Assembly (NCBI GenBank): GCA_964493915.1
Contig: CAZBQH010000415.1
Span: forward strand, 1-50,468
Reading direction: 5' to 3'
Length of the DNA: 50,468 bases
Source: an uncultured Nitrospiraceae bacterium
GTDB lineage: Bacteria > Hydrogenedentota > Hydrogenedentia > Hydrogenedentales > SLHB01
Both the position numbers and the translations under genes were made by a program. Below the pieces are notes generated by a model. It saw only the letters and a list, made by a program, of their open reading frames with translations. It ran no database searches and was not told the DNA's origin. Each line of letters starts with the position of its first letter. Positions within the stretch are counted from its first letter, which is position 1. Shown in pieces: positions 1,092-36,450 of this stretch.

Positions 1092-3458
1092 TCATCGGAT
1101 CCACCTCAACAGAAAGCCCCCCGCCGTCGGGAATGCGAGCAAGAGCAATGCCAAACTGACAATCGTCCCAGCGGGCACGCCATCATGGCCGTTGCTGTTG
1201 TTTTCTTCTCCAACAGCACAGGAAAACTCACCACCGCACTCCTGGAATTCGAGATTTCTATTGGGAACCCCCACTCCCTTGATAATGAGCTTATCAATGC
1301 CTCCTCGGTAACTTCCGTTGAGGATTTGGGCGGGCAAGGTCCATCCCGAGGCTGTGGCGTCTCCCAAGCCTGGCAGCGCCTGCAGGTTAAGCCGGCCTAT
1401 CTCCATGAAATCAGAACCCCTGCAGTAAGAAAAAACAAAATCAGCGCCCTCCACCCGACAACGGTACTGCAACGTGGACGAGACGTCGATCGCTCCCGAC
1501 GTCCAGACACCGTTGTAGTCCGGGTCGAGCAGAAGAAGATGGGCGGCGCCGTCTCGCAGCCGGGCAACGATATGTCCTCGTGTAACGCCCTCAGGATCAT
1601 TCACAAACACCCAAAGCGGATAGAACACCCCCGTTACCGCCGGTTCCGTTAAAAGCACATTGACCTCGGGAAACTGGCTGTAGAACCGGTCTGCCTGATA
1701 CCTCGCGATGCTGGCGCCCGTAACGGCACCGGTAAACGTCAGCGTGCATGCATTCTGAGCGACTGCCCCTGCATCGGACCAGAACAGTTCGGCCTCTCGG
1801 TCGCTTTGGCTGCCCGAAAACCGTGCGGTTCCTCCCGCGACCCGCGTGCGGAGCCAGTCTCTGTACGCATTGTCATACGGTCCCAACTGCACGTCTTCGG
1901 GCGTCAAGTCAACATGAGAAGCGGTCTCATCGCCAAACACCTCCAGGAAAGCGTCTAAGTAACGGAAACCGTGCTCCCGGCACGGGATCAGATAGTGCCC
2001 CTCGAGCCACTCATTCCAATTGTCCAGAAGAACCATGCGCTGACCCAAGTCGCCCTCGGGCAGGTTCCCCATAAAAGTCTTCACTTGGCCGCAGAGCATC
2101 TGGAAGCTGTCCGAGCTCATGTGATAATGGGCAGACGCATGGTGATTCGGCAGCGCCTCGATGGGCGACGGGTCCCACATGAATGATAATGTCGGCACAT
2201 TGGGCAGAATGTCCCAGTCGCGGCGGTCCTGCAGGTTCTGCATAATCACCGACCGCGCCGTGGCATCGGAAGCGCCGTCGGGTACATTGCCCCAGCAATA
2301 CGCGAAACTCGCGTCAAGCCCGCAGTCGGCGATAAGCTGAATCACGTCCGGCCACCAGTGCCGCGATTCCCCAAAAACGTACAGCCCCGAGAAACCCTCG
2401 CCGACGCACCTGGCTCGCATCAGGTCCATAGCAGCGCGGACGTTTTCAGTGGATCCCAAATCCTCGATGAGACGTTGAATGTCGTAGATGAACAACACGG
2501 GCTTGCCGTCCACGACAAGGTAGTTTGGACGCCTGAAATAGGTTTGCATCCAGAACGCGAAGAGATGGTCCATCAGGTCTTCCTGGGAAGCCACACCCGA
2601 ATACGCCCCGTTGGTCCACATGATGGCAAACTTGATCCGGTTCTGGTAGCGTGCATGAAACAACCCTTCATGGAGGGCATGCCCCAACTGCTGCTGCAAC
2701 GGATCACCGTCGTTCCCGATAGCGCGGTACCAGTCATACATAAAAAAGTCCACGCCGTGCTCGACGGCCCACTTGATCTGCCAGTCCGTTGCCTCGGGGT
2801 CGCTCTCGTCGTACCAACCCAGCGCCGGTTTGCGCCAGGGATAGTCGACCTCGAGAGGCGCCCAACCCATGTGGTCGCCCGGCTTCCATCCCGGGAAAAA
2901 CATCATACCCACGAGTTCCGGCGTGTCGCGGACGATGGGTTCCGGCACATAATCGGCAGTCGAAGGGGCGACCGGTTCCGTAAAGGTCGTATCGAGGACG
3001 TCCTCGGTGGTCTCCGTGCCTTCTCCCGTAATGGTCACGCGAAAGACGCCTGAAAAACCCTTCTCGGCACGGACGCGCCATGACAGGCGGGCCGAAGGCA
3101 GAGGGGCCGGATAGCTGCTGGGCAGGAACGCGCCGCCGAGCTGAATCGTTTTCTGCTGCCAGTCGGAAGGTGAAATGCTGGTCGTCGAGTTCTCCAGAAG
3201 CGCCGCGTCTGCAGGCGCCTCGAGCGCGACCTCAAGCGCCGGATGGGCCTCCTCGAGATCCCGCACATAGAGCCAAAGCACCTCCTCGCGGCCGGCCCGC
3301 TGGACAGACCGGTCCCAGTACAACCTCGCGAGGAGATCGTCGGTCGAACCCTTAGGGGTTCCCGCCTCAGCATGTGAAATTCCGCCAGCACCACAAAACG
3401 ACACCCACACCAGGACACAAAACGCTAAAGCCACCCGGAAAGGAGAGCTGCGTGTCAT
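1092..3458 (-). CDS. Secreted GH99-like / WbsX-family glycoside hydrolase domain protein with C-terminal membrane anchor
   Basis: Signal peptide. Motifs FFPGW, KPALGWYDESDPEATDWQIKWAVEHGVDFFMYDWY, YLVVDGKPVLFIY and DNWNEWLEGHYL are typical of GH99-like/WbsX domains. Ends in a hydrophobic helix plus basic tail. Confidence 0.75.
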   Translation of the reverse strand: MTRSSPFRVALAFCVLVWVSFCGAGGISHAEAGTPKGSTDDLLARLYWDRSVQRAGREEVLWLYVRDLEEAHPALEVALEAPADAALLENSTTSISPSDWQQKTIQLGGAFLPSSYPAPLPSARLSWRVRAEKGFSGVFRVTITGEGTETTEDVLDTTFTEPVAPSTADYVPEPIVRDTPELVGMMFFPGWKPGDHMGWAPLEVDYPWRKPALGWYDESDPEATDWQIKWAVEHGVDFFMYDWYRAIGNDGDPLQQQLGHALHEGLFHARYQNRIKFAIMWTNGAYSGVASQEDLMDHLFAFWMQTYFRRPNYLVVDGKPVLFIYDIQRLIEDLGSTENVRAAMDLMRARCVGEGFSGLYVFGESRHWWPDVIQLIADCGLDASFAYCWGNVPDGASDATARSVIMQNLQDRRDWDILPNVPTLSFMWDPSPIEALPNHHASAHYHMSSDSFQMLCGQVKTFMGNLPEGDLGQRMVLLDNWNEWLEGHYLIPCREHGFRYLDAFLEVFGDETASHVDLTPEDVQLGPYDNAYRDWLRTRVAGGTARFSGSQSDREAELFWSDAGAVAQNACTLTFTGAVTGASIARYQADRFYSQFPEVNVLLTEPAVTGVFYPLWVFVNDPEGVTRGHIVARLRDGAAHLLLLDPDYNGVWTSGAIDVSSTLQYRCRVEGADFVFSYCRGSDFMEIGRLNLQALPGLGDATASGWTLPAQILNGSYRGGIDKLIIKGVGVPNRNLEFQECGGEFSCAVGEENNSNGHDGVPAGTIVSLALLLLAFPTAGGFLLRWIR

Positions 3459-4615: not shown

Positions 4616-4650
4616 CAGGGGCGGATCCGCAAAGATCCGTCCCTGTTTTT
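4616..4650 (+). terminator. Rho-independent terminator of rpsD
   Basis: 12-bp stem CAGGGGCGGATC / GATCCGTCCCTG (one G-U) followed by TTTTT. Confidence 0.85.
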
Positions 4651-4880
4651 GCTTTGCCCAACGTTTTAAATCCGCTGCCCAACGCATTCTATGAAAGATG
4701 GACCGCCCCCCTTTCCAAATCCCGTCTGATCACGCCCCGCCCGCCCAGCTCTCAACTTCCGGCTCGAACCACCTGAAGGCTGCTGTCCAGTGACTACAGC
4801 AATAAATGCACTATTATTGTGCTCGTCGAGTGCGCCCTGTCTGCATATTTAGTCAAGCGAGTTCAGTGAAAGGAAGAGTT

Positions 4881-4912
4881 ATGTTAGAAAAACGTTAGGA
4901 TTATGTTAAGAT
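4881..4912 (+). promoter_or_regulatory. Pho-box-like (PhoB/OmpR-family) direct repeats with extended -10
   Basis: TGTTAG 4882, CGTTAG 4893 and TGTTAA 4904 at an exact 11-bp period. The last overlaps TG-n-TAAGAT (4904-4912). Confidence 0.55.
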
Positions 4913-4952
4913 TACATGAGCAGCTGCTCATAGAGAAAGGGTCCTTTTTCAG

Positions 4953-7900
4953 ATGATCGGGAGCAGACACGGGGCCGGTTTTTCCGGCCTGGCGGCTGGT
5001 TTTATACTTGCAGCTCTAGCCTGCGGTGCGGCCCACAGCGCCGTCCTCATCAACGAACTGCAGGCCGCGACAACCGATCGCCTCCTGCAATGGCCCGAGA
5101 ATGGCATGCCATTGCTCGGCGCCGCCCCCTCGTGGACTTCGCCGGATTTCGACGACACAGCATGGCCCAGCGGGCCCGGCCCCTTGGGTTACGGCGAGAG
5201 CGGCATTGCCACATCCGTTGACACAAATGCGTACGGCGCCGTCTCCCTCTACGTTCGCAAGACCTTTTTCGCAAGCGCTGATGAGGCCGCATCGGACCAG
5301 GCGCTCACCCTTTCCATCGACTTCGACGACAGTTTTGTGGCGTATGTAAACGGCGTCGATGTGGCCCGGCGCGCCATGGCTGCCGAACATGGGTTCATAT
5401 ACCATGATCAGACAGCCTATAACGCGAGGGAGTCCGGCGTGCCAGAGGCTTTCTCTCTAGGACCCGCATCGAGTCTCCTACGGGAAGGCAAGAACGTGCT
5501 GGCCGTCCAAGTGCACAACATCTTTCTCGGCAGCAGCGACCTGGTCGTCAAAGCGGACCTTGCCATGGCAGGTCGTGCAGAACTGCTCGTTAACCATACC
5601 GGCACGTGGCGTTATATGGTGGGAACATGCGAGCCTTCGGGCGGCGTAAGCGACGAAGACTGCGCGTTCTGCGACTGGATCGAGCTTTACAACAACGGAT
5701 CTCAGGTGAACCTCGGCGGCTGGTCGTTGACGGACGACCCGCTGGACCCGGGCAAGTGGCGCTTTCCCAGTGTGACGCTCCCGAGCGGGCAATACCTCGT
5801 TGTTTTCGCCTCGGGCAAAGATCGGACCAGTCCCTACCTTCACACAAGCTTCAAGCTCTCGAGCGAGGGCGAATACCTCGGGCTTTTCGACAATGCGGGA
5901 GGCCTCGTAGATGTCATCGCGCCTGCCTTTCCGCACCAGTCCCCCTTCTACTCGTATGGGCGCGCCTCGAACGGATCGTGGGCCTATTTCGAGACCGTCA
6001 CCCCAGGAAGGCCAAACAGCCTTGGACGCCAGTTTCAGGGCATCCTGGACCCGCCCCGATTTACAGCAGAAGGTGGGCTGTATGATAGTCCTTTCGACCT
6101 GACGCTCAGTTCTGCACCGGCTACGACAATCCGCTATACCTTGAGCGAGCGGGCGCCGCTCGGCCAAGACGGCGTGCGATGGGAGTTCAACGGCGACGGG
6201 GACCCGGAAGGTTGGAGCCCTTGGCACTCGACAAGCGCCTTCGAAGTCTCGGGCGGGGCGTTGCATTTCAGCATCACGAACACCGACCCCTTTATCGGCG
6301 CCCCGAGTTTCGCCCTGGACGCATCCCTCCACCACTACGTGGTCATCCGGATGCGCATGTCCATCGCGGGCAGATGCCAGATTTTCTTCGTCACGCAAAC
6401 CCAAACCGGTTGGGACGAGCCGAAGAGCCGGTTCTTCGAGTCCGGGCCGGCCAATGAGTTCACGGACTATGTGCTGGATCTCAGCGACCACGAGCTGTGG
6501 AACGGCTACATCACAGGGCTGAGGGTCGATCCGCCGAGCGAGGCCTCGACGGGCGACGTCGCCATCGATTTTATACGGGTCATCGCCGAGCCTGACACGT
6601 CTCCAAGCGAAGAACCGTCGCCAGCCTCCCCCTTTGTCGAGGGACGCGAGCCTTCTGAACACTCCGGCGCTGTTTACACAGGTCCTATCCACATTGAGGC
6701 CAACACCATCATACGTGCAAGGGCATTCAGGGAGGGTTTCATACCCAGTCCGACGGTCACCCACACTTACATATTCGGCACAGGTCTTCCCGGCGACGAC
6801 CGTCCGGCGCTGCATTCGCTCCCGATACTCGCCGTTGTCGGCGACAAGGAGCGCAGCCTTGTCGAGCCGCACGGGTTTATGGCGATCCGCGGCGGATCTT
6901 ACACAGGCCAGTACGGATGGTGGGAACCGCAGGACATCGACGACTACAATCATCCCATCATGCACGGCCGCGCCTTCGAGCGGCCGGTGGCCGTCGAATT
7001 CTTCGACCCGCTGGGCGGCGCCGGGTTCTGCACCGATGTGGGGATGCGGCTGGCCCGCAGCGACGTCGCCCGGCCCTCCTTCCGTTGGGTAGATGGGTGT
7101 TGGGTGAGTTCCGGCAAGTGGTCGTTCCGCTTGTATTTCCGCAACGACTATGGGGAATCGCCTCTCGATTTCCCGCTTTACCCCGAAGAACACAGTTCGA
7201 ACCGCTTCGACGTGCTTGCGATCCGCACCTTTGGCGGCGATTGGAAGAACCCTTTTATCAACGAAGAGTTGACGCGGCGGCTCCAGATCGAGATGGGTGC
7301 GGGCGGATCCTACGGCATTTACGTGAATCTGTTCATCAACGGCCAATACAAGGCCTACTTGAACCTCTGTGAGCGGCTTGACGAGAGTTATTTTCAGCAC
7401 CTGCACAACAGCGACAATGAATGGGACGTTCTCAAGAAACAAGTCAACAGGGACTTCCAACCCGTTCTCGAGGTGCAAGGCGGCGACCTCACCGCCTGGA
7501 ACAGCCTCATCGACTACGTCCGGAGCCACGACCTGGCGGTTTATGCCAACTACCTCGAAGCGGCTGGACGCGTTGACGTCCCCCAGTTCATCGACTGGAT
7601 CCTCGCAAACGTCTACGCAGGGATGATCGACTGGCCCTGGAACAACTGGATCGCCGCCCGCGAACGCACACCCGAGGGGATCTGGCACTTCTACATATGG
7701 GACGCCGACTACACGTTCCGCATGCTCGAGCAACACGGTCACGGCGGCGTGAACCACCGGACAATGGACAACATCGAGTACCAGGGCAACCAGGTCAACG
7801 ACCTGTATCGGGCGCTCAAGAACAGCCCCGAGTTCCGCGTGCTCTGGTGGGACCGCGTGCACAAGCACTTCGGGCCGGGCGGCGCGCTGTCTAAGGAGAA

Positions 7901-10646
7901 AGTCGCCGCGTTGTTTCACGAGCTGCGTGCGCAAGTTGAGCCGTCCCTCGATCACATGTACCACGAACCATTCGATACATGGATTCTCGACCAGTGGATC
8001 CCCAACCGCGAAGAAATCCTTTTCCAGCAGTTCAGCGATTTCGGGTTGGCGCCGGCGCTCGATGCGCCCATCTTCGCGCAAACAAGCGAAAGCATCACGA
8101 TCACAAACCCGAACACAGACCTCTCGACCGAGATCCGCTATACACTCAACGGGGCCGATCCGCGCCGCCCGGGCACTGGCACGCCGGTCGGATATGCAGC
8201 GGTCGGCAAAGCGCTTGTGCCATTAAGCGGCTACACGGTGGTAAAAGCGCGTATCTACGGCAAGATAGGCGACCGATGGAGCGCCCTCGAGGAAACCAAG
8301 GCACTCGCTGAGGAAGCGGACTACGCCGCTCTGCGGATTACAGAGTTCATGTATCACCCGGCCGACGGCGGCGCCGAGTTCATCGAGCTCCGCAACATCG
8401 GCGACAACCCGCTTGATGTCTCGGGCGTCTACTTCAGCGACGGCGTCGACTACGCGTTCGACCCTGGAACGATCGTCAATCCGGAGCAGTATGTCTTGCT
8501 AGTCTCGTCGGAAACGGAATTCGCCGCGGCTTATCCGGGCGTGCCATATGACGGAGTTTACGACGGTCAGCTTAGCAACGGCGGCGAGCGGCTCGCTCTG
8601 AACGACCCGTCCGGGATCGAATTCCTTTCGATGACTTACAGCGACGAGCCGCCATGGCCCACTGCCCCCGATGGACAGGGTTTCTCGCTCGTCATCATCG
8701 ACGAAGGCGCCGACCCGGATAATCCTTACAACTGGCGGGCCAGCTCGGAAATGGGCGGCGGACCTGGTCTGGAAGATGAAGACCCGACCATCCCCCAGGT
8801 GCTGGTCAACGAAGCCCTTGCCCATACGGACCTGCCAGAGCGCGACGCCATCGAGATATACAACCCGACGGATCAGACGGCCGACGTCCGCGGCTGGTTC
8901 CTCACCGACAGCCGGACAGACCCAAAGAGAGCCCGCATCCCCTTTGAAGCGCGTTTTGTACTACCGCCCGGCGCCTATGCAGTAATTGACGACGCCCTAT
9001 TCGGCGATAATCCAGGCGAGGTCGACGGCGTGCCGCTCCCAGGATTTGGCCTGAGCGCAAAAGGCGGCGAAGGCGCCTACATCTATTCGGCGAACGAAGC
9101 CGGTCTGCTGACCGGGTACAGCCACGGATTCGAGTTCGGCCCTTCTGAGAGCGGCGTTTCGTTCGGGCGGCATGTGACCAGCGACGCCAAGGTCCACTAC
9201 GTCGCCCAGCGTCAGAACACGTTCGGCGCGCTCAACGCAGGACCCAAGGTAGGGCCGCTGGTCATCAGCGAGATCCATTACCATCCCCCAGGAGACGGCG
9301 TTGAATACCTCGAGTTAACCAATATATCGGACCAGGTTGTCTCGCTATGGGACACGGCGCCTGGCGGCAACCCGGCCAACACCTACGTGATAAGCGGCAT
9401 CGGCTTCGTCTTCGAGCAGGGCGTCGAGGTAGGACCCGGGGAACGCCTGCTCATCGTGAACTGCGAGCCTGCCGACTTCCTTGCGGTCTATGACGTGCCC
9501 GCCGACGTGACCGTTCTCGGCCCCTTTGGAAATGCTTCCCCTGACGGCGAGGCTGCCCTGAGCAACGGGGGCGAACGCATCACGCTCGAATGGCCCGACG
9601 CACCCGAACTCGAGACGGCTATGGTCTTTTACATCATCATGGACGAGGTCGACTACGACGACGAACAGCCTTGGGCCCCCGCAGATGGCAATGGGCTGGT
9701 GTTGCAGCGGGTCCGGCTCGACCAGTTTGGCAATGAGCCACATAACTGGACAAGCGCCATGCCGAGCTATCCGCCTCTCTCAGGCGCCGTAGAACCTATG
9801 GTCCACATTCCGGTTCACTCATCCGAAGACGACGCGGAAGAAAGCCCCGATGGCGGCGTAGACCTGGACGATCTCATCCTCGAGTTGACAGACGGTCCGT
9901 CTGGCGCTCAAACCGTCGGCTTGCGCTTCACAGACGTGGGCGTTCCCCGCCGCGCCGAGATCACCCGGGCCTATCTGCAGTTTTCTGCTGCGGCGGTCGA
10001 CGCAGCCCACTCGAGTATCGTGCTGTGCGCCCAAGCGACCAGTTCACCGCCGGCATTCTCCTCGACCGCGTTTGATATTTCGTCCCGTAGTGTCACCTCC
10101 GAAACAGTCTCATGGGCGCCGCCGGCCTGGTCAATCATCGGAGAACGGGACGCCGCCCAACAGACGCCCGACCTGTCCGCCGTATTGCAAGAAGTTGTCG
10201 CCAAGCCCGGTTGGGACGGCGGAAACGCAATTGTGATGCTGTTGACGGGCAGCGGGGTGCGGCGCGCCTCCTCCTGGGATGGAAGCGCGCAAAACTATGG
10301 AAATGACAGCGCTGCGCCCGTTCTCCACATCGAGTTCGAGGTAGGCAAGTACGCCGTGGGCGACATCAACCAGGACGGTTCCGTCAACGCCCTCGACGTG
10401 CAGTTGGTTATCAATGCAGCGTTAGGCTTTGATATTGGCGACTTCGTGGCAGACGTCAACCTTGACGAGAGTGTAAACGCACTGGATGTCCAGCTTGTGA
10501 TCAACGCTGCTCTAGGCCTCCCAGTCGCGATTAAGACAGAGGCGGGCAACGGGGGCGGTTGGGCGTCCGGCGGCCTTCTTCACAGGGACGGGGACGCCCA
10601 AGGGATCAAGACCGGCGTCGACAAAGTGGAATCTTGGCCATGGTAA
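4953..10646 (+). CDS. Large secreted CotH-family kinase protein with several lamin-tail domains, Fn3-associated repeats and C-terminal dockerin-like repeats
   Basis: Signal peptide. Lamin-tail starts (VLINEL, LRITEFMYHP, VLVNEAL, LVISEIHYHP; DWIELYN, EFIELRN). CotH motifs NGQYKAYLNLCERLD, IDWPWNNW and WDADYTF. Dockerin pair GDINQDGSVNALDVQLVINAALG / ADVNLDESVNALDVQLVINAALG. Confidence 0.85.
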   Translation: MIGSRHGAGFSGLAAGFILAALACGAAHSAVLINELQAATTDRLLQWPENGMPLLGAAPSWTSPDFDDTAWPSGPGPLGYGESGIATSVDTNAYGAVSLYVRKTFFASADEAASDQALTLSIDFDDSFVAYVNGVDVARRAMAAEHGFIYHDQTAYNARESGVPEAFSLGPASSLLREGKNVLAVQVHNIFLGSSDLVVKADLAMAGRAELLVNHTGTWRYMVGTCEPSGGVSDEDCAFCDWIELYNNGSQVNLGGWSLTDDPLDPGKWRFPSVTLPSGQYLVVFASGKDRTSPYLHTSFKLSSEGEYLGLFDNAGGLVDVIAPAFPHQSPFYSYGRASNGSWAYFETVTPGRPNSLGRQFQGILDPPRFTAEGGLYDSPFDLTLSSAPATTIRYTLSERAPLGQDGVRWEFNGDGDPEGWSPWHSTSAFEVSGGALHFSITNTDPFIGAPSFALDASLHHYVVIRMRMSIAGRCQIFFVTQTQTGWDEPKSRFFESGPANEFTDYVLDLSDHELWNGYITGLRVDPPSEASTGDVAIDFIRVIAEPDTSPSEEPSPASPFVEGREPSEHSGAVYTGPIHIEANTIIRARAFREGFIPSPTVTHTYIFGTGLPGDDRPALHSLPILAVVGDKERSLVEPHGFMAIRGGSYTGQYGWWEPQDIDDYNHPIMHGRAFERPVAVEFFDPLGGAGFCTDVGMRLARSDVARPSFRWVDGCWVSSGKWSFRLYFRNDYGESPLDFPLYPEEHSSNRFDVLAIRTFGGDWKNPFINEELTRRLQIEMGAGGSYGIYVNLFINGQYKAYLNLCERLDESYFQHLHNSDNEWDVLKKQVNRDFQPVLEVQGGDLTAWNSLIDYVRSHDLAVYANYLEAAGRVDVPQFIDWILANVYAGMIDWPWNNWIAARERTPEGIWHFYIWDADYTFRMLEQHGHGGVNHRTMDNIEYQGNQVNDLYRALKNSPEFRVLWWDRVHKHFGPGGALSKEKVAALFHELRAQVEPSLDHMYHEPFDTWILDQWIPNREEILFQQFSDFGLAPALDAPIFAQTSESITITNPNTDLSTEIRYTLNGADPRRPGTGTPVGYAAVGKALVPLSGYTVVKARIYGKIGDRWSALEETKALAEEADYAALRITEFMYHPADGGAEFIELRNIGDNPLDVSGVYFSDGVDYAFDPGTIVNPEQYVLLVSSETEFAAAYPGVPYDGVYDGQLSNGGERLALNDPSGIEFLSMTYSDEPPWPTAPDGQGFSLVIIDEGADPDNPYNWRASSEMGGGPGLEDEDPTIPQVLVNEALAHTDLPERDAIEIYNPTDQTADVRGWFLTDSRTDPKRARIPFEARFVLPPGAYAVIDDALFGDNPGEVDGVPLPGFGLSAKGGEGAYIYSANEAGLLTGYSHGFEFGPSESGVSFGRHVTSDAKVHYVAQRQNTFGALNAGPKVGPLVISEIHYHPPGDGVEYLELTNISDQVVSLWDTAPGGNPANTYVISGIGFVFEQGVEVGPGERLLIVNCEPADFLAVYDVPADVTVLGPFGNASPDGEAALSNGGERITLEWPDAPELETAMVFYIIMDEVDYDDEQPWAPADGNGLVLQRVRLDQFGNEPHNWTSAMPSYPPLSGAVEPMVHIPVHSSEDDAEESPDGGVDLDDLILELTDGPSGAQTVGLRFTDVGVPRRAEITRAYLQFSAAAVDAAHSSIVLCAQATSSPPAFSSTAFDISSRSVTSETVSWAPPAWSIIGERDAAQQTPDLSAVLQEVVAKPGWDGGNAIVMLLTGSGVRRASSWDGSAQNYGNDSAAPVLHIEFEVGKYAVGDINQDGSVNALDVQLVINAALGFDIGDFVADVNLDESVNALDVQLVINAALGLPVAIKTEAGNGGGWASGGLLHRDGDAQGIKTGVDKVESWPW

Positions 10647-11440
10647 AGCCGTTTCCACGCACGAGCGCGCACGAGCCCGCGTTTACGCAACGCTTCGAGG
10701 CGAAATACCTGGTAAGCGAACTCTTGGCCGAGGCGGCAAAAGACTATATCGGCCCTTATGTTCGCCCGGACGCGCATGGCGCCGCCTATAGCGTCACGAG
10801 CCTTTACTTCGACAGCCCATCTCTTCACACGTTCTGGAGCAGTGAACGGGGCGAATCAAACCGGTTCAAACTGCGGATCCGCGCATACTCGGACGCCGAG
10901 GACGCACCCGTCTTTTTCGAAATCAAGCGACGCATAAACCGGATTATCCAGAAAGACCGCGCTCTCGTACGCAGACCTTCGGTCGCCTCCCTGCTCGATG
11001 GCGGATTCGCTGATAGGCAGGTCCTTGCCGAGCCCGGCGACACGCAAGACATCGAGAACCTCCACCGTTTTCGCGCCTTGGCTGAATCCCTCGGGGCTGC
11101 ACCGCGTGTGACGGTACGCTATGACCGCGAGGCGTACGTCAGCGACCTGGAGGAGCCGGTCCGCATTACCTTTGATCGACAGGTCCGTTGCCTAGCCTCC
11201 CCGGTCTACCGCCCGGACCTCTGGTCCAATACCGAACGGTGGTTCGAGGTGAATGCCGTTCCGGTCCTCCTCGAGGTGAAGTTTACCAACCGGTTCCCGT
11301 TGTGGGTCTCTCACCTCATCAAACGGCTCAATCTCAGGCGCGGCTCTTTTGCCAAATACGTCGCGTGCGTGAAGGCCGTCCAACGCGCGGGGATTCCAGT
11401 TGGGGGCAACAAGGAGCGTGCCGCACCATGGAACTCCTGA
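10640..11440 (+). CDS. VTC (polyphosphate polymerase) domain protein, triphosphate tunnel metalloenzyme fold
   Basis: Motifs RFEAKY, SLYFDS, RFKLRIRAY, FFEIKRR, YDREAY, RITFD, LLEVKF and FAKY. Start ATG 10640 overlaps the CotH stop. Confidence 0.85.
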   Translation: MVKPFPRTSAHEPAFTQRFEAKYLVSELLAEAAKDYIGPYVRPDAHGAAYSVTSLYFDSPSLHTFWSSERGESNRFKLRIRAYSDAEDAPVFFEIKRRINRIIQKDRALVRRPSVASLLDGGFADRQVLAEPGDTQDIENLHRFRALAESLGAAPRVTVRYDREAYVSDLEEPVRITFDRQVRCLASPVYRPDLWSNTERWFEVNAVPVLLEVKFTNRFPLWVSHLIKRLNLRRGSFAKYVACVKAVQRAGIPVGGNKERAAPWNS

Positions 11441-12120
11441 ACCAACTCTCGTCCAGTGGTCAACTGGGCGCGAGCGGCCTCGCCCTTGAACAGGCCATAC
11501 TGGGCCTGCTGCTTGCCTTTGTGTTAGGCCAACTCGCTGCATGGATCTACATGTACACCCATGCCGGGCTTTCTTATTCACGCGCATTCGTCCAGTCCAT
11601 TATCCTCCTGACCATCATCATCTGCTTAGGCATGATGGTTATCGGCAACAACATCGTCATTGCCTTCGGCCTCATCGGCGCCTTGGCCGTCGTCCGGTTC
11701 CGCAACATCCTGAAGGACACGCGGGACATGGCCTTCGTCTTCTTCGCCCTGGTCGTCGGCATGGCTACAGGCACCGGGAGCCATCACCTGGCCGTGCTGG
11801 GCACGGCGCTGTTTTGCCTTGTCTTGCTCTACCTGCACTGGGCCCAGTTCGGGAGCCTGAGGACCGGCGACGGTTTCGTGCGGTTTCAGATGGATGCATC
11901 CACCGTCGATCCGGAAACCATACAGGCGATACTGCACCGCTACTGCCGGTCGGCAAACCTCGTATCGCAACGGTTCCACGACGAGGGCTACGGCGAGACC
12001 TCCTACCGTCTGATCATGCGCGACCCGGAGCGTGCGGACAACATGGTTGAAGCACTGCGGCAAACGCCTGGGCTATCGAACATAACCTTCGTGCTTCAAG
12101 AAGAACAGGCTGAAGTATGA
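11428..12120 (+). CDS. DUF4956 family membrane protein
   Basis: SD AAGGAG at 11411, ATG 11428. Motif MMVIGNNIVIAFGLIGALAVVRFRNILKDTRDMAFVFFALVVGMATG. Several TM helices plus a small soluble C-terminal domain. Confidence 0.85.
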   Translation: MELLNQLSSSGQLGASGLALEQAILGLLLAFVLGQLAAWIYMYTHAGLSYSRAFVQSIILLTIIICLGMMVIGNNIVIAFGLIGALAVVRFRNILKDTRDMAFVFFALVVGMATGTGSHHLAVLGTALFCLVLLYLHWAQFGSLRTGDGFVRFQMDASTVDPETIQAILHRYCRSANLVSQRFHDEGYGETSYRLIMRDPERADNMVEALRQTPGLSNITFVLQEEQAEV

Positions 12121-13286
12121 TGGGCGCTGGTTGGAAGCAACCACCGGGCAGGTCTTTCTCCCGCAGGCTGCGGTTCTGGCGGCGCCGGTATCTCCCGCTC
12201 GTTGTGTGGTTGGCAGCTATCGCAGCGGCCGGTTTCCTTCTCGAACGGCAGGCTTACCGCGTCGATGCGGTGGGCGTCGTCGAGCTGCGCCAAGTAGCCG
12301 TGGCTCCTCTTGTCAACGGCGCTCTTCAGAGCATCGGCGTAGACCTACTAGACCCGGTTAAGGAGGGACAACTTATCGGTTTGATGGACGACGCAGAGGT
12401 AGCCGGCGAACTGCGGATTGCGGAGTCCGAACTGAGCCGTCTCGAGGCGTCCCTCGCCGCTGAGAACCAGCGCCTGGTCGTCGAGCAGTCGCTCGCTCAA
12501 GCCCAAAACCTAAATGACTTCCGGCAGTTCGTCGTCAATGAGGAACAGGCCCGGCTTGACCTGCTCGACCGTCAAGTTAGCCAGGAAACGGACCGCGTCG
12601 CGCTGCAACGTCTCGAAATCCTTCTCAATCGCCAGAAACAGCTGCTCGAGGAACAGCTTATCGACGTGGCCGCTTATGATGAGGCGCGCCTTCAGTACGC
12701 GAATCTCGAAAAGCAAATCCTGGAAAACGAGGCTGCCATTGCCGTCGCACGCAGAAGTCTTGACGAAGCCATTCAAAGAAGGAGCGAGCGCGAGAAAGAC
12801 GCAGAATCCACCTTTCCTTTGGACCCATTCCTACAGCCCTTCAGGGCGGAGATCCGCGTTCAGGAAGCCCGCATTGCCCAACTCAAGGACCAACGCCTGC
12901 AGCTCGCCCTCAAAGCGCCCGTATCAGGGCACATCAGCGCCGTCCTGTGCCGCACGGGCCAGACAGTCCTCGCAGGCAGCCCCATCGTGATGATCGCCGA
13001 CGACCGGTCTCAACGCGTTGTCGCATATGTCGACGAAAAGGCGGGACGCAGCATCGAGCCCGGCGCCCCCGTCGATCTCCGTTCGCGCCTCGAGCCGCAC
13101 ATCGAGATCAACACCGCCGTATCACGGGTGTCGCTCCATGTCGAGGAAATGCCGGCCCGGCTCTGGCGCACCCCCCTTGTCCCGCAATGGGGGATGCCGG
13201 TGCTCATCAGCGACGTCCCCTCCGGGCTGTTCATACCAGGCGAGGTGGTTCAGCTGCGTCTTACGAGGAGATCCCCCGCACCGTAG
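12117..13286 (+). CDS. HlyD-family membrane fusion (periplasmic adaptor) protein
   Basis: One N-terminal TM. Lipoyl half-motifs VAPLVNGALQSIGV...VKEGQLI and LKAPVSGHISAV...GQTVLAGSPI flank a long coiled coil. ATGA overlap with DUF4956. Confidence 0.8.
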   Translation: MMGAGWKQPPGRSFSRRLRFWRRRYLPLVVWLAAIAAAGFLLERQAYRVDAVGVVELRQVAVAPLVNGALQSIGVDLLDPVKEGQLIGLMDDAEVAGELRIAESELSRLEASLAAENQRLVVEQSLAQAQNLNDFRQFVVNEEQARLDLLDRQVSQETDRVALQRLEILLNRQKQLLEEQLIDVAAYDEARLQYANLEKQILENEAAIAVARRSLDEAIQRRSEREKDAESTFPLDPFLQPFRAEIRVQEARIAQLKDQRLQLALKAPVSGHISAVLCRTGQTVLAGSPIVMIADDRSQRVVAYVDEKAGRSIEPGAPVDLRSRLEPHIEINTAVSRVSLHVEEMPARLWRTPLVPQWGMPVLISDVPSGLFIPGEVVQLRLTRRSPAP

Positions 13287-13309
13287 CTCACGGTTTTGCG
13301 CCCTGCCGA

Positions 13310-14626
13310 TCAGTTCCCGTGCCCATTGTAGTAATGGGCTATCGCCGCCTCAATCGCAGGCATAGGCGCCACCACCGGCCTGACGCCCCGCTTGGTCGCG
13401 TGCTCAACGTCGCCGATGGCAATCAGGTTCAAGGGATCGGCCATCGCAAGAACCAGATGGTTCTGATCCGCGCGCAGTGGAATACAACAGTGTTTATGGG
13501 CTATCCGCCCCGGCAGCAAGGCGGCAGCCTCCGGCTCGACCCCTTGCGCGTCAAGCTGTATGTAGAGCACCCCTTGTTGGCTGGCGACACCCTGCGCTAC
13601 CTGCTCGGCGCTGGCAAAACCTTCCTCAATAAGCACCTGTGCAAGTGACCTCCCGGGATTCCCTTTCTGACGCGTCACCGCTTCATCGAATTGGTCCTGC
13701 GTAATCACGCCAGCATCAAGGAGGATTGTCCCCACATTTCTGGACCGCCCCTCCCATTCGCGTCGCGAACGGCGCAGCACCTCGTTCTCCGTCTTGAGCG
13801 CCTCAAGCTGCGCTTGAGCCTGCTCAACTTGCTGCAAGGCCTCGGCAAACTGCTGGGCAAGCGCCGCCTTCGTGCCGTTTGCCGTCTCCTGTTCAAAACG
13901 CTCCGTCAGAAGCTGCGCGCGCCGGTGCGCTTCTTCGAGACGCCGTCCCGTTTCAGCGGCGTTCTCGGCCACGGGCCTCATCGCCTCGAGCTCTTCGCGC
14001 GCCGCGTTCAACTCGAGCCGCGCCGTGTTCAATTCGGCCAAGCGCTGCGCAAGGTCTTCTTCAAGCTCCTGCGCCTTCTGCTCAAGCCGAATCTGACCCT
14101 CCTCCAGATTCACCGCCTGCGCCTCCACTATCTCCGCTTCGCTCTCGTACTCCTTGACGCGCAACTCGAGTTCGGCAACACGCCGCTTCGCCGCGGCCGC
14201 AGCGTCCTGGAGATCCGCAAAGGCCTTTTCCGCCTGCGCCGCCCGCTGCGCTGCTTCCAAGGCGCGGTCCTCGTGTTCCTGGGCCGATTGCTCGAGCTGC
14301 ACTACCCGCTGCTTGGCCGCCTGAACCGCGTCTGCATTCTCTGCGACCGTCTTCTCGAGCTGGATCCGGCGATCCCGCTCCGTTTCCAGCGCCTCGACCT
14401 GCGCGGCATAGGATTCCCGCATGGCCTCGAGATTGCCCCGCAGACCAGCCAGCAACTGCACTGTCCCGGCCCCGTTCTCCGCTAGAGCCTCGTCAAGCAC
14501 GTCAAGCCCGTTTCGCAAACCCGAGACGTCTTGCTTGAGGCGCTCCGCTGCAGCGGCGGCCTGTTGTTCCCATTCAACAAGTGCGGTGTTGACCGTTACG
14601 CAAAGCGATTCAAAAGACAGTCCCAT
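13310..14626 (-). CDS. Coiled-coil protein with C-terminal MshEN / T2SSE_N (GspE/PilB N-terminal) domain and no ATPase
   Basis: About 290 aa of E/A/Q-rich coiled coil, then VGTILLDAGVITQDQFDEAVTRQ...LAQVLIEEGF...IPLR...LVLAMADPLNLIAIGDVEHAT...VRPVVA. Confidence 0.75.
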   Translation of the reverse strand: MGLSFESLCVTVNTALVEWEQQAAAAAERLKQDVSGLRNGLDVLDEALAENGAGTVQLLAGLRGNLEAMRESYAAQVEALETERDRRIQLEKTVAENADAVQAAKQRVVQLEQSAQEHEDRALEAAQRAAQAEKAFADLQDAAAAAKRRVAELELRVKEYESEAEIVEAQAVNLEEGQIRLEQKAQELEEDLAQRLAELNTARLELNAAREELEAMRPVAENAAETGRRLEEAHRRAQLLTERFEQETANGTKAALAQQFAEALQQVEQAQAQLEALKTENEVLRRSRREWEGRSRNVGTILLDAGVITQDQFDEAVTRQKGNPGRSLAQVLIEEGFASAEQVAQGVASQQGVLYIQLDAQGVEPEAAALLPGRIAHKHCCIPLRADQNHLVLAMADPLNLIAIGDVEHATKRGVRPVVAPMPAIEAAIAHYYNGHGN

Positions 14627-14671
14627 GACCCAAGCTCCACTCCCCCGACAGGATAGAAACAGTCTCTATGA

Positions 14672-14700
14672 ATTGTAGACTGAAACAGGGCATACGTCAA
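14672..14700 (-). promoter_or_regulatory. sigma70 promoter of the MshEN coiled-coil gene
   Basis: Minus strand TTGACG, 17 nt, TACAAT, with an AT-rich UP-element-like tract upstream (14701-14780). Confidence 0.65.
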
Positions 14701-14945
14701 GTAAAATGAATATTTATTTCGGGTATTACGGTGTAAACGCCATTAAAGGAGATATAAATTATGATAAATACTATAATAGCCGGTCTAAGACCACCCCCTC
14801 TCGACGGTACCCGAATCGCTCTCCTCTCGACATCCAGCCCCTTCCCCCATTTCCTTCCCCAGTGGAAGATGCCGCATCTCGTGTACTATGCTGGCGGCAT
14901 AGAATCAAATGAGTCCTCGAAGATCTTCAGAGAATAGGTTGATAA

Positions 14946-19761: not shown

Positions 19762-20469
19762 TTACTCCACCGGCTTGCAGTAGACCTCGACCTCGACGTA
19801 GTGGTTTTTCTCGTCGGTAGTGTTGCCGTTGCTGTAGAGCCGGATGTAACGGCCCTTCACACCGCCCGCATCGATCAGTTTGCCCTGATACGACTCGATA
19901 TACTCCTTATCCTCGCCAATCCCGAGACCAGAGGAATTGTCGTGGTCGTTGTTGAAAACCGTCTTGACGCCCTGAGTAAAGTCTTTGTCCTCGGCGACCT
20001 TCGCGATGGTGTCAAAGTAAACGCGCTCGGCTGCGTGGTAATGCCACAAGAGCACGGCATATATTTCGCTCGGGACGCCCAGGTCGATCTGGACATACTG
20101 CACGCCTTCCGGCAGTTCAACTACGCCCTTCTCGAAATAACGCTTATCGCCGTCCGTGATGAGCTCAAGCTTGCCTGCCAGCGGTTTGGTCGCGCTGCTG
20201 GTCACAGCCTTGCCCTTCGCCAGATTTGCCGCACCCTGGGGCACATAGAAAGGAGGACGCTTCTTAAACGACCGCTCTTCAAGATTGGGGCTGAAATAGT
20301 TGAGGGGCGTGCCCCCGTAATACGGCTCGGGCAGCTCGAGTTCCAGCTCTACCTTGCCGTCGGGCGGCGCGGGCTTCTCATCTGAGGCGAAGGCCGGAAA
20401 CCCGCCTAGCGCGGCAGCGCCCAATGCGACGAGCAAGGTGAAAAAGAGAGGTACGTTACGCTTCATCAT
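19762..20469 (-). CDS. Secreted discoidin/F5-8 type C-like (galactose-binding fold) protein
   Basis: Signal peptide. NLAKGKAVTSS...LITDGDK...YVQIDLG...GRYIRLYSNG...YVEVEVY. Only 9 nt upstream of the TIGR03663 gene. Confidence 0.65.
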   Translation of the reverse strand: MMKRNVPLFFTLLVALGAAALGGFPAFASDEKPAPPDGKVELELELPEPYYGGTPLNYFSPNLEERSFKKRPPFYVPQGAANLAKGKAVTSSATKPLAGKLELITDGDKRYFEKGVVELPEGVQYVQIDLGVPSEIYAVLLWHYHAAERVYFDTIAKVAEDKDFTQGVKTVFNNDHDNSSGLGIGEDKEYIESYQGKLIDAGGVKGRYIRLYSNGNTTDEKNHYVEVEVYCKPVE

Positions 20470-20624: not shown

Positions 20625-21482
20625 CTAATCCCCGACAACGACCTTCGCGAACACCGGGTAGTGGTCTGAAGGATACCGTCCGTCCTCCTCGTAGGCAACC
20701 GTTTCACAGTATGTTGCGCGTGCTGCGCCCCCCGTCAACACCCAGTCGATGCGGTCGTCTCTATCTGGGCACGGGCCTTTGAAGTCCCCGAACGTATGGG
20801 CCGGACCTCTCGTCGCTGCACTTACCAGCCACGCATCGGACAGTCCGCCGCCTGTCAGGATGCTCCAGGGTTCGCTCTTGCATGCAAGGGCGTTGAAATC
20901 CCCCGTTACAATTACGGGAGCGCCGGCGGCAATATCCTGGATGCGGCGGAGCAGAAGCCGGGCGCTCTCGATACGCGCCGTCTCGCTCGCATGGTCGAAA
21001 TGCGTATTGAAGGCATAGAACGCCTGTTGGCTCGGAATATGGTAAAAACGCGCCCAAGTCGCCATCCGGGTACACCGGGTGGACCAGGACCGCGATCCCG
21101 GCACATCCGGCGTCTCAGATAGCCAGAAGTGGCCCGAGGAAAGGGGTCTCAGCACGCGCACATCATAGAAAAGGGCGGTCGTCTCGCCCGTGCAGTCGGC
21201 CTCGCGTCCCAGGCCGATCCACTTGTACCGAGGCAGCGCCTCACAGATATAGTCAGCCTGAAAATCCAGGCATTCCTGCGCGCCGAACACGTGCGGCTCG
21301 TACGTGCGAAGAACGCCCGCCACGATGTCTTTCCGGTGCGCCCAAGCGTTCTCGCCATCATCCGCTGTACCGTGACGGACATTAAAGGACATCACTTTGA
21401 GCTCGACGCCCGCAAAGGCGGATGGGCATGAAAAGTAAAAGGCTATCCCGATTGCAAAGCAAAGAAGCGTCCACTGACTCAT
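20625..21482 (-). CDS. Secreted endonuclease/exonuclease/phosphatase (EEP) family protein
   Basis: VMSFNVR, GAQEC, FWLSETP, NTHFDH, VTGDFN, RIDWV and PSDHYPV. Confidence 0.9.
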   Translation of the reverse strand: MSQWTLLCFAIGIAFYFSCPSAFAGVELKVMSFNVRHGTADDGENAWAHRKDIVAGVLRTYEPHVFGAQECLDFQADYICEALPRYKWIGLGREADCTGETTALFYDVRVLRPLSSGHFWLSETPDVPGSRSWSTRCTRMATWARFYHIPSQQAFYAFNTHFDHASETARIESARLLLRRIQDIAAGAPVIVTGDFNALACKSEPWSILTGGGLSDAWLVSAATRGPAHTFGDFKGPCPDRDDRIDWVLTGGAARATYCETVAYEEDGRYPSDHYPVFAKVVVGD

Positions 21483-21535: not shown

Positions 21536-22528
21536 CTACGCGATCGCGTCCAGGACCGTTCTGTCGAAATCCTTTGTGCGGCAGCAGCCGATGACAGGCG
21601 CGCCCAGGAAAGCGACGGTCCGCTCCGCCTGGTCCAGGCCGAAAAAGGCTTCCGCTCTGGCATGAAATTGCTCGATAAGGCGCTCGATATCGCGGTCGAT
21701 GGCCTCGACAAGCACCGGAATTCCCTCGCGAGCGCGAGGAGGCGCTCCATCGACAGCCGCCGCCGCGTAGTTGCGCAATATCCGCTGGTCGTTCCAAGCG
21801 CCCAATACCTCCTGGGCATTCTTGAGCTGCACGAGGAACGCGTCCATCTCACTTCCATAGAGGGGCGCGTAGACCTCGCAGGCGTACCGAAGCTTCTTGA
21901 AACGCACGCGAATGCGGTGGAGGATGTCCTCAGCAGGAGCGCTTGTCCAAAGCGAATAAAGGTTCCTCAGACGGCCATAGCCCTTGGTGAGACGGCGGGC
22001 TGCGGCCTTAAGATAGCACTCTTTGCAGGGCGCAATGCTCTCGAAGATGTCGATCAGGGCGCGGTTGAATTCAGGCGTGCTAACGGAAATTGCGGATGCA
22101 ATCACCTTCTCGGACTCAGCTTTCCGCAACGCGCGGAGCTTCTTGACAAGATGCACCACACCGTGCCGGGGGGCGCCGTGGACCTGTCTTCTGCGCTCTT
22201 CCAGAAGGCTAAGGCAAACATCAAGCTCGCGAGCCTTGCCGAGGGACGACGTGACTCCGCGCAGACGGGTCTGAAAATCGGCATAGGCCTTTTTCCCAAA
22301 GACGGCCTTGTGCTCGCGCAAGGCGGCGCGCAGCCGGCGCGACGCCACTCGCATATCGTGGATGCCGTCGACATCCTCGAGGCGGGCTTTCTCACTCGTT
22401 CCACGCAGTTTGCCCACGCGCTTCTTGAGCGACAAAGAGGCCGCCTCGCTCGCTAGTACACATGGCTTGGTCACAAACAGCCTTTCTGGAACGCCCCGCC
22501 TGCGACTCCGCGAAACCGAGCTTATCAT
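21536..22528 (-). CDS. CHAD domain protein (polyphosphate-binding family)
   Basis: IHDMRVASRRLRAAL, LGKARELDV, LHRIRVRFKKLRYACE and QEVLGAWND. Confidence 0.88.
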   Translation of the reverse strand: MISSVSRSRRRGVPERLFVTKPCVLASEAASLSLKKRVGKLRGTSEKARLEDVDGIHDMRVASRRLRAALREHKAVFGKKAYADFQTRLRGVTSSLGKARELDVCLSLLEERRRQVHGAPRHGVVHLVKKLRALRKAESEKVIASAISVSTPEFNRALIDIFESIAPCKECYLKAAARRLTKGYGRLRNLYSLWTSAPAEDILHRIRVRFKKLRYACEVYAPLYGSEMDAFLVQLKNAQEVLGAWNDQRILRNYAAAAVDGAPPRAREGIPVLVEAIDRDIERLIEQFHARAEAFFGLDQAERTVAFLGAPVIGCCRTKDFDRTVLDAIA

Positions 22529-36189: not shown

Positions 36190-36450
36190 ATGGGGAGGCG
36201 TTCCGAGGATGCTGAGACTCTTCATCGCAGCAAGGTGGATGAAGAACGAAAGGCCCGACCTGAACGCGAGGAGGAAACAGCGCTCGACGCTATTCAACGC
36301 TTGCGAATGGAGCGGCGTCTTGCACTGCTGTTTTTCGGGCTCTTCCTCGCGGCGGCGTGGGTGCTTTCGTTTCTCGCCGGCCCTCCCCTAGATACACCCA
36401 TTGGCGACAGCGTTTTTCCCGAAGCAGTTCATTCGGAGGCAGTTCCATGA
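36190..36450 (+). CDS. Small single-TM hypothetical protein
   Basis: SD GGGAG. Charged N-terminus then a hydrophobic helix. The stop overlaps the next ATG (ATGA). Confidence 0.55.
   Translation: MGRRSEDAETLHRSKVDEERKARPEREEETALDAIQRLRMERRLALLFFGLFLAAAWVLSFLAGPPLDTPIGDSVFPEAVHSEAVP

Follow-up and report, generated by a model that had tools for sequence, protein, structure and literature searches.

In the eukaryotic vacuolar transporter chaperone (VTC) complex (Vtc4/Vtc3 or Vtc2/Vtc1; 3g3q, 7ytj, 8i6v), polyphosphate is made at the cytoplasmic face and its synthesis is coupled to passage across the membrane into the vacuole. In tripartite efflux pumps such as EmrAB-TolC (4tko; 8zar/8zal) and MacAB-TolC (5nik), a periplasmic adaptor with a long helical hairpin docks onto a TolC duct. 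In Gram-positive bacteria, cotH, polyphosphate-polymerase and DUF4956 genes have been described as accessory genes contiguous with pel operons (bioRxiv 10.1101/768473, PMC7112168). Here we analyse a 50,468-nucleotide (nt) stretch of DNA, referred to below as the window, from an uncultured Nitrospiraceae bacterium placed by GTDB in the Hydrogenedentota (assembly GCA_964493915.1, contig CAZBQH010000415.1). It carries four consecutive genes, whose products are a CotH-like protein, a VTC-domain protein, the membrane protein DUF4956 and an adaptor of the HlyD family. The last three form a conserved module that joins two known kinds of machinery, VTC polymerase-translocase logic and the architecture of tripartite efflux, and we see an even chance that this module is a polyphosphate synthase-exporter. 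The four genes are as follows (aa, amino acids).

4953-10646, + strand: gene 1, CotH-like protein, 1897 aa, exported and multidomain (Pfam, hydropathy)
10640-11440, + strand: gene 2, VTC, a Vtc4-like triphosphate tunnel protein, 266 aa (Pfam, profile match to 3g3q)
11428-12120, + strand: gene 3, DUF4956 membrane protein, 230 aa (Pfam, AlphaFold2 model)
12117-13286, + strand: gene 4, EmrA-type HlyD-family periplasmic adaptor, 389 aa (Pfam, model, Foldseek)

The listing of open reading frames gives these genes as 4953-10646, 10559-11440, 11188-12120 and 12117-13286. Genes 2 and 3 were begun at the first in-frame ATG, the mechanical frame of gene 2 opening with TTG at 10559, and the ATG starts chosen for VTC and DUF4956 are backed by an AAGGAG box upstream of 11428 and by homologue alignments. 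Neighbouring genes overlap by 7 nt (CotH/VTC, ATGGTAA), 13 nt (VTC/DUF4956) and 4 nt (DUF4956/HlyD, ATGA), and CotH and VTC appear to be translationally coupled here. A second, independent DNA run yielded contigs that span 4700-13400 with 0 differences and 0 indels, so the frames and overlaps are not assembly errors. A hairpin scan found no convincing terminator between the four genes. All of this, domains included, bears out the four-gene anatomy put forward in a sequence-only reading of the same DNA, which had also described VTC as soluble, DUF4956 as a multi-helix membrane protein and HlyD as standing without a pump partner; hydropathy gives 0 hydrophobic stretches for VTC. On the last point, a Pfam scan of the window neighbours revealed no ATP-binding cassette (ABC), resistance-nodulation-division (RND) or major facilitator superfamily (MFS) gene next to HlyD, the nearest ABC gene lying 18.5 kb away. 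No NCBIfam model scores above its cut-off for any of the four proteins.

To place the operon among its relatives, the four families were followed through 41 related genomes, and VTC, DUF4956 and CotH also through 14 control genomes. VTC is present in 10 of the 41, at 12 places, and at 10 of these places VTC, DUF4956 and HlyD follow one another on one strand; the other two hold the reversed pair DUF4956 then VTC, without HlyD. DUF4956 is found in 11 of the 41, namely the same 10 VTC genomes and one that is 83% complete. CotH occurs in 15 of the 41, comprising 9 of the 10 VTC-positive and 6 of the 31 VTC-negative genomes. These genomes are not independent of one another, so co-occurrence is overstated and we attach no test statistic to it. 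Among the controls, VTC and DUF4956 match the same 3 of 14, and CotH matches those 3 and Bacillus subtilis. An all-against-all comparison of nine extended related loci and the window yielded no recurring family beyond CotH, VTC, DUF4956 and HlyD, pumps included. The two reversed pairs (L020 on G030:C7 and L021 on G027:C33) are divergent and their genomes also hold the main type; the pair at L021 adjoins a classical 608-aa CotH (176 bits).

We then surveyed a one-genome-per-species collection with a 13-sequence VTC alignment and kept the loci of the best 80 of at least 587 relatives. Scoring used profiles that had been built from the related loci and iterated. DUF4956 lies directly 3′ of VTC in 66 of the 80 loci, and the full order VTC, DUF4956, HlyD is found in 63 of the 80 (63/66 of those with DUF4956), 62 of them intact and one with a HlyD gene split by a frameshift. 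HlyD is missing from three of the DUF4956 loci; two of these break off at the edge of a contig, and the third (L062) leaves space for the gene. The core spans five diderm phyla, Hydrogenedentota, Sumerlaeota, Planctomycetota, Verrucomicrobiota and Balneolales/Rhodothermota. Group tallies for the intact core, which follow the labels in record titles, are given below.

Hydrogenedentota: 5/5
Sumerlaeota: 3/3
Balneolales/Rhodothermota: 9/9
Planctomycetota: 20/26
Verrucomicrobiota: 20/31
Other records: 5/5
Locus labelled Bifidobacteriaceae: 0/1

Within 10 kb, 23 of the 80 loci encode a CotH domain that scores above 100 bits; among the 62 intact cores, 20 do. Many loci are cut at contig ends, which makes these CotH counts minimum values. 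The placement of CotH varies, being upstream, after HlyD or convergent, and so does its frequency, from common in Hydrogenedentota (4/5) and Balneolales (7/9) to rare in Verrucomicrobiota (1/20 cores). The sequence-only reading had described a four-gene unit; the conserved machine is the VTC-DUF4956-HlyD trio, and CotH is a frequent, optional companion.

In our sample, the adaptor was found at diderm loci and not at monoderm ones. The monoderm set consists of all seven plasmid-collection matches to VTC, all from Bacillota or Actinomycetota; the locus L043 was left out of this comparison for its doubtful Bifidobacteriaceae label. VTC adjoins DUF4956 in 7/7 of these loci, CotH is present in 4/7, and annotation, Pfam and profiles revealed HlyD in 0/7. 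The suggested HlyD linkage is therefore conserved and, in our sample, confined to diderms (63/80 diderm-phylum against 0/7 monoderm loci in the gene-neighbourhood survey). The CotH, VTC and DUF4956 genes are contiguous in the window, and the same trio is found in the 4 monoderm loci with CotH, as in the published Gram-positive pel clusters. Those pel loci differ in lacking HlyD and in lying inside polysaccharide clusters, whereas the window has the adaptor, and none of the 20 neighbouring window proteins scanned belongs to a pel-type family (pelDEADAFG).

The pel-linked trio has some experimental history, where the sequence-only reading knew of no experimental characterisation. For the pel setting a role in polysaccharide production or regulation has been suggested (bioRxiv 10.1101/768473). 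Pel levels are reported to change, and Pel-dependent aggregation to fall, when SIR_1592 (DUF4956-type) or SIR_1594 (CotH) is deleted in Streptococcus intermedius (PMC12345266), and the trio's genes are listed in NELoc-2 of Clostridium perfringens (PMC2879425). The authors of the 2025 mBio study write that they did not detect this three-gene synteny beyond the Pel locus (PMC12345266). In our data, unlike that statement, the trio or its VTC-DUF4956 core is widespread outside the Pel locus. What appears new is the HlyD-linked form, and what was known is the CotH/VTC/DUF4956 trio of Gram-positive pel loci; we found no publication that ties a VTC-domain protein to HlyD and, among those listed, none of relevance that joins CotH to polyphosphate, subscription journals lying outside the search.

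The VTC protein carries a single Pfam domain, VTC (PF09359), which scores 123.4 bits against a cut-off of 23 and spans profile positions 2-234 of 235. When a profile of the bacterial family is compared with the yeast-type subunits, Vtc4 (3g3q) is matched at E 2.5e-17 (66 bits), ahead of Vtc2 (6.1e-7, 32 bits) and Vtc3 (5.5e-4, 22 bits). A cryo-electron microscopy preprint (10.1101/2023.01.27.525886) reports K200, R264, R266, K281, Y359, R361, E426, S457 and K458 as critical in Vtc4, with K458 described as the sole critical residue that differs in the inactive Vtc2 and Vtc3 (Ile/Leu). Eight of these nine are kept in bacterial VTC: K22, R79, R81, K96, Y161, R163, E212 and K239 align, in order, to Vtc4 K200, R264, R266, K281, Y359, R361, E426 and K458, and are invariant in 23/23 and 48/48 VTC sequences. 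The K458 equivalent, K239, is thus invariant across the bacterial family, and this lysine together with the profile E-values upholds the assignment of the enzyme as Vtc4-like rather than Vtc2/3-like.

A further set of positions separates synthetic from hydrolytic tunnel enzymes. The latter are reported to be marked by four acidic positions that are basic in Vtc4 (Martinez et al. 2015, PMC4641920). In the window protein, R18 and K214 are basic, like their Vtc4 counterparts, and E20 is acidic where Vtc4 has Thr. Polyphosphate synthesis by the bacterial VTC is likely, as judged from its catalytic residues, and not certain, because Glu20 stays acidic and AtTTM3, with the same tunnel centre, hydrolyses its substrate. 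The bacterial protein resembles the eukaryotic one in its tunnel domain and Vtc4 catalytic set, K458 included, and differs in that it has no SPX domain, keeps Glu20, replaces S457 with Ala and has its membrane domain on a separate, unfused protein; neither an SPX domain nor a C-terminal membrane domain was found in the chain by Pfam or hydropathy.

The third gene encodes that separate membrane protein. DUF4956 (PF16316) scores 51.8 bits against a cut-off of 30.6, and hydropathy shows three strong hydrophobic stretches where the AlphaFold2 model has five helices (predicted local distance difference test (pLDDT) score 84.9). The model divides the protein into two parts.

11485-11841, + strand: DUF4956 helices, residues 20-138 (AlphaFold2 model)
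11869-12096, + strand: ACT-like domain, residues 148-223, beta-alpha-beta-beta-alpha-beta (model)

The C-terminal domain matches ACT domains and the C-terminal domains of MgtC proteins (7qa5, Z 9.1, root-mean-square deviation 3.3 over 88 aligned residues; 2lqj, Z 8.8). The Pfam MgtC model matches the helices at 15.2 bits (E 0.027), under its cut-off of 31.4. DUF4956 thus appears to stand outside the MgtC family proper, the modelled likeness being one of architecture (a helical membrane domain followed by a C-terminal ACT-like domain) and of C-domain fold. It also differs from MgtC in its own invariant motifs, W-x-Y-x-x-T-H...S-Y-S (W39/Y41/T44/H45/S49/Y50/S51) and R-F-R-N-x-x-x-D-T-x-D (R90/F91/R92/N93/D97/T98/D100). 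By the positive-inside rule, these motifs would face the cytoplasm. The putative membrane partner of the bacterial VTC is not a DUF202-type three-helix subunit as in eukaryotes. The proposal of a split VTC complex stands in the half that concerns the Vtc4-like enzyme and falls in the other, DUF4956 being MgtC-like with an ACT-like domain rather than a piece of VTC, so that the module resembles yeast VTC only by analogy. A complex prediction for DUF4956 with VTC from paired 48-row alignments (score 0.00, mark 0.32) weighs neither way.

The fourth protein scores 38.0 bits with HlyD_3 and 31.1 bits with HlyD_D23, and all NCBIfam adaptor models remain under their cut-offs (best TIGR01730, 72.2 against 94.9). 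Its model (pLDDT 92.1) shows an anchor helix, two lipoyl halves, a hairpin helix of about 85 residues with return helices, and a beta-barrel, and has no membrane-proximal domain. The elements map as follows.

Residues 25-43: anchor (model)
Residues 93-262: helical hairpin (model)
Residues 291-382: beta-barrel (model)

Hydropathy likewise gives a single N-terminal hydrophobic anchor, preceded by a cytoplasmic tail with eight Arg/Lys among 24 residues. The best Foldseek match is EmrA (4tko, E 2.8e-19), followed by EmrA in EmrAB-TolC and then MacA, and the adaptor is accordingly modelled as EmrA-type. It shares with the tripartite pumps the anchor, the long hairpin, the lipoyl and beta-barrel domains and the missing membrane-proximal domain. 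The window locus differs from these pumps in having, in place of an MFS, ABC or RND protein, an adjacent 230-aa DUF4956 protein and a polymerase-like cytoplasmic enzyme. The inner-membrane partner of EmrA has little periplasmic mass, and DUF4956 is similar in this respect. An adaptor without a conventional pump, as the sequence-only reading had it, is what we find: DUF4956 sits in the pump position, and no pump recurs in the 9 extended related loci.

In reverse searches at E <= 1e-10, 11 of the 41 related genomes each give a single match to the window HlyD, and these are precisely the DUF4956 genomes; each match lies on the contig of DUF4956, within a few hundred bases of it. At the same threshold the subfamily is absent from the other 30 genomes, each of which gave 7-36 first-look candidates. 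Because it is found in exactly the DUF4956 genomes and always beside DUF4956, the adaptor is a dedicated subfamily rather than a stray efflux gene. With a subfamily profile, cognate adaptors mostly score 276-428 bits (191 for the contig-end-cut L098, and 127 and 124 for the halves of the frameshift-split one), and other HlyD paralogues in the surveyed loci reach at most 127 bits.

The link to the outer membrane was sought in the genes that follow the adaptor. Across the 63 core loci, 23 genes of 250-650 aa start no more than 400 nt 3′ of the cognate HlyD, and 8 of the 23 encode a TolC-like outer-membrane protein (Pfam OEP), a tally in which L047 and L085 are shown individually and the other six follow from 49-69% identity to L047 and from the total of eight. 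This arrangement, too, resembles that of tripartite pumps. One of the 23 encodes a phosphate-selective porin: in the Pirellulaceae locus L080, a Porin_O_P gene (13036-14778, + strand, 156 bits) starts 280 nt after the cognate HlyD. Such a porin would offer a phosphate polymer another way across the outer membrane. The genome of the window itself holds 13 OEP (TolC-type) matches in at least 6 open frames, and with so many TolC-type genes the host is a diderm. VTC, DUF4956 and CotH are present in one copy each. PPK1 and a two-domain PPK2 are also encoded, so the VTC enzyme is not the organism's sole polyphosphate route.

Gene 1 encodes a protein of a different character. Its Pfam domains are LTD (147.8 bits over 4 stretches), Fn3_assoc, CotH, CHB_HEX_C_1 and Dockerin_1, and hydropathy shows a single N-terminal hydrophobic stretch (residues 8-34) that is signal-peptide-like. 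The chain is strongly acidic (K+R 116, D+E 261). The CotH model (PF08757) scores 46.5 bits against a cut-off of 23.8 and begins to match only at profile position 49. The main domains are listed below.

7089-8048, + strand: CotH kinase-like domain, residues 713-1032 (own profile envelope), with Asp893 (DWPxNN) and Asp917 (WDxD)
8316-8639, + strand: best of four LTD stretches, residues 1122-1229 (Pfam PF00932)
10359-10508, + strand: type I dockerin repeats, residues 1803-1852 (Pfam PF00404)

A profile of the CotH clade matches Bacillus cereus CotH (5jd9) at E 2.1e-32, and Asp893 and Asp917, which we take to be catalytic-core residues of CotH, are invariant in 21/21 CotH sequences (alignment columns D191 and D215). 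The N-terminal R-I-x-G-x-x-S-R motif is missing from the window protein and its nearest clade (L013, L017 and L028), whereas most others keep it; the Lys that follows the motif, in G-K-W-S-F-R, is retained in the window clade. The protein thus shares with the Bacillus spore-coat kinase (5jd9/5jda) the kinase-like domain and both invariant Asp, and differs from it in its length of 1897 aa, its export, its LTD and dockerin domains, its lost motif and a host that apparently does not form spores. Giant CotH proteins are greatly expanded in two genomes reached through VTC-alone loci, with 49 matches in G041 (via L043) and 57 in G042 (via L101), many in frames of 1500-3900 aa; each holds one DUF4956 and 2-3 VTC matches, and their labels (Bifidobacteriaceae, 7 Mb, and Akkermansia muciniphila, 5.2 Mb) look unreliable. 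DUF4956 is encoded elsewhere in both, and in G042 it adjoins a second VTC match.

We propose the following model for the module. The soluble VTC enzyme, stationed at the cytoplasmic face, would build polyphosphate from the terminal phosphate of ATP, as its conserved catalytic residues suggest. The growing chain would enter a DUF4956 oligomer, its ACT-like domain presumably on the cytoplasmic side, that serves as the inner-membrane passage, by analogy with the coupling of synthesis and translocation in eukaryotic VTC. From there the anchored EmrA-type adaptor, on the strength of gene context and fold, may extend the conduit over the periplasm to a TolC-like duct, whose gene adjoins that of the adaptor in some relatives and lies elsewhere in the genome of the window, and the polymer would arrive at the cell surface or in the medium. 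The proposed destination is therefore the diderm exterior and not a vacuole, and the efflux-type adaptor is the part that the bacterial module adds. The giant secreted CotH would be an accessory client, acting on or with the exported polymer or on the same surface target. Our data show the anatomy of the genes, their domains, their conservation and co-occurrence and, among the loci sampled, an adaptor confined to diderms; we infer every biochemical step of this scheme. A bolder version, which we consider improbable, has the polymerase replace the pump altogether and would make the module a kind of envelope-spanning secretion system not recognised before: polymerisation would power the threading of polyphosphate through the DUF4956 channel and the EmrA-type adaptor/TolC duct, and the polymer would then be an energy and phosphoryl currency for the giant secreted CotH kinases.

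Several observations weigh against a synthase-exporter. Within the enzyme, Vtc4 S457 corresponds to Ala238, and Glu20 (in R-x-E-x-K), one of the four acidic-patch positions of hydrolytic enzymes, is retained across the bacterial VTC family. AtTTM3 is reported to share the tunnel centre of Vtc4 and yet to be a tripolyphosphatase, so that tunnel residues alone do not fix activity (PMC4641920). Our search, with subscription journals outside its range, found no published activity for any bacterial VTC-domain protein. In the membrane, DUF4956 has no relationship to the channel of yeast VTC, and no informative match to solved folds was obtained for its membrane part (Foldseek and VIA-align with the whole model); fused VTC-DUF4956 proteins were not found in searches for longer forms, which were weak searches. 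At the level of the locus, the window operon has no outer-membrane gene and 15 of the 23 scanned genes after HlyD are not OEP. The DUF4956 then VTC pairs without HlyD in two diderm relatives (L020 and L021) mean that the adaptor is not obligatory in diderms, and VTC stands alone in 14 of the 80 loci. Examples of the latter are L053, L061, L077, L079, L088 and L090, of which L053 and L061 adjoin CotH proteins.

Some of these points suit other explanations. ACT domains are ligand sensors, and VTC could be hydrolytic or regulatory, a tri-/polyphosphatase or a nucleotide/polyphosphate sensor, with the ACT-like domain gating export of another cargo (cations, small anions or precursors of a surface polymer, for example) through DUF4956-HlyD(-TolC). 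The retained Glu20 would fit such a role, as would the weak MgtC likeness of DUF4956 (Pfam E 0.027; Z 9.1 to 7qa5 and 8.8 to 2lqj), MgtC being a regulator and not a channel, and tunnel enzymes with the same centre are reported to vary in activity (PMC4641920). We nevertheless hold this explanation to be unlikely: the K458-equivalent lysine, described as dispensable in the tripolyphosphatase AtTTM3 and critical in the polymerase, is invariant, at three of the four acidic-patch positions the residue is basic or resembles that of Vtc4, and VTC accompanies DUF4956 strictly, in 10 of 11 DUF4956 genomes, the 11th being the one that is 83% complete. If polyphosphate is made, it might instead go only to the periplasm or envelope, as a cation buffer or a capsule-like layer, with HlyD a scaffold that does not dock at the outer membrane. 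The window operon without an outer-membrane gene, the 15 of 23 downstream genes that are not OEP and the HlyD-less pairs of diderm relatives all point that way, but in solved pumps (8zar/8zal, 5nik) a long hairpin of the EmrA type is what docks to TolC, and 8 loci have an OEP gene immediately after the adaptor, which leaves this possibility very doubtful. That the genes are juxtaposed by chance or by an assembly artefact and do not cooperate is an idea we give almost no weight. The variable position of CotH speaks for it and nothing else does, while it is contradicted by the overlaps between stop and start codons, by a gene order that recurs in 63 of 80 loci from five phyla and by the identical sequence in an independent run.

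A last alternative is compatible with the synthase-exporter and would add to it: exported polyphosphate may, as the sequence-only reading suggested, be the phosphoryl donor of the secreted CotH protein, which has no access to cytoplasmic ATP, and the four genes would in that case make up a single system for phosphorylation outside the cell. CotH is coupled to VTC in the window, and it accompanies the module in 23 of 80 loci, 20 of 62 intact cores and 4 of 7 monoderm loci, in 9 of 10 VTC-positive against 6 of 31 VTC-negative relatives, and in the 3 of 14 control genomes that have VTC and DUF4956 (and in Bacillus subtilis). Its signal-peptide-like N-terminus and both invariant Asp are kept, and the loss of R-I-x-G-x-x-S-R in the window clade could fit a changed donor site. 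Known CotH enzymes, however, use ATP. CotH is missing from 42 of the 62 core loci, six relatives have it without VTC, and the co-occurrence is overstated by the relatedness of the genomes. The strongly acidic protein (K+R 116, D+E 261) shows no sequence sign of polyphosphate binding, and the publication on the pel setting suggests polysaccharide production or regulation instead. On balance, a donor role for the polymer is speculative and unlikely. We thus return to the synthase-exporter, whose chances we left as even, and the earlier interpretation as a whole is partly supported.

The neighbours of the operon in the window encode rpsD, a WbsX-like protein, an MshEN-domain protein, an alpha-amylase and a PMT_2 protein, and two upstream elements lie between rpsD and the CotH gene.

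4616-4645, + strand: strong terminator-like hairpin after rpsD, a 12-pair stem followed by a T-run, marking the upstream edge of the transcription unit
4790-4817, + strand: weak sigma-70-like promoter match upstream of the CotH gene, 9/12 consensus positions

Four sigma-70-like sites were observed near the promoter match against 2.6 expected, so that 4790-4817 is a lead only. The MshEN-domain protein (a cyclic di-GMP-binding family; 438 aa, 13310-14626, - strand) is convergent with HlyD across a 23-nt gap, its MshEN domain being C-terminal and its N-terminal 350 residues showing no family above cut-off; it was rejected as part of the system, not being conserved beside VTC in relatives. A CHAD-domain protein (21536-22528, - strand, 133.5 bits), with no obvious signal peptide by eye, lies 8 kb from the operon and adjoins an Exo_endo_phos protein (20625-21482, - strand). 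CHAD is described as a polyphosphate-binding family (PMC6537752). Both genes were likewise rejected, as neither recurs beside VTC in relatives. WbsX-like (GH99-like) genes occur near VTC in the window (1092-3458, - strand) and at L019 (10738-11901, + strand) only, two cases that are too few for a link. Two further frames, 36357-38312 (+ strand, 651 aa) and 19762-20469 (- strand, 235 aa), have no Pfam family at the thresholds used.

In the current view, bacterial polyphosphate is made intracellularly by PPK1 and PPK2, and how it gets to the exterior is still an open problem. According to a 2026 preprint, extracellular polyphosphate in the Bacillus cereus group does not depend on PPK; by its account, the synthase and exporter there are not known and there is no VTC4 homologue. 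If the proposed function is correct, the yeast-type polymerase would have a counterpart in bacteria, polymer synthesis could couple to a tripartite-efflux duct that has no conventional pump, and secreted CotH kinases may have an extracellular source of phosphoryl groups. With at least 587 VTC relatives and the core present in 63 of the best 80 loci, the module is so widespread that one biochemical test would annotate many genomes.

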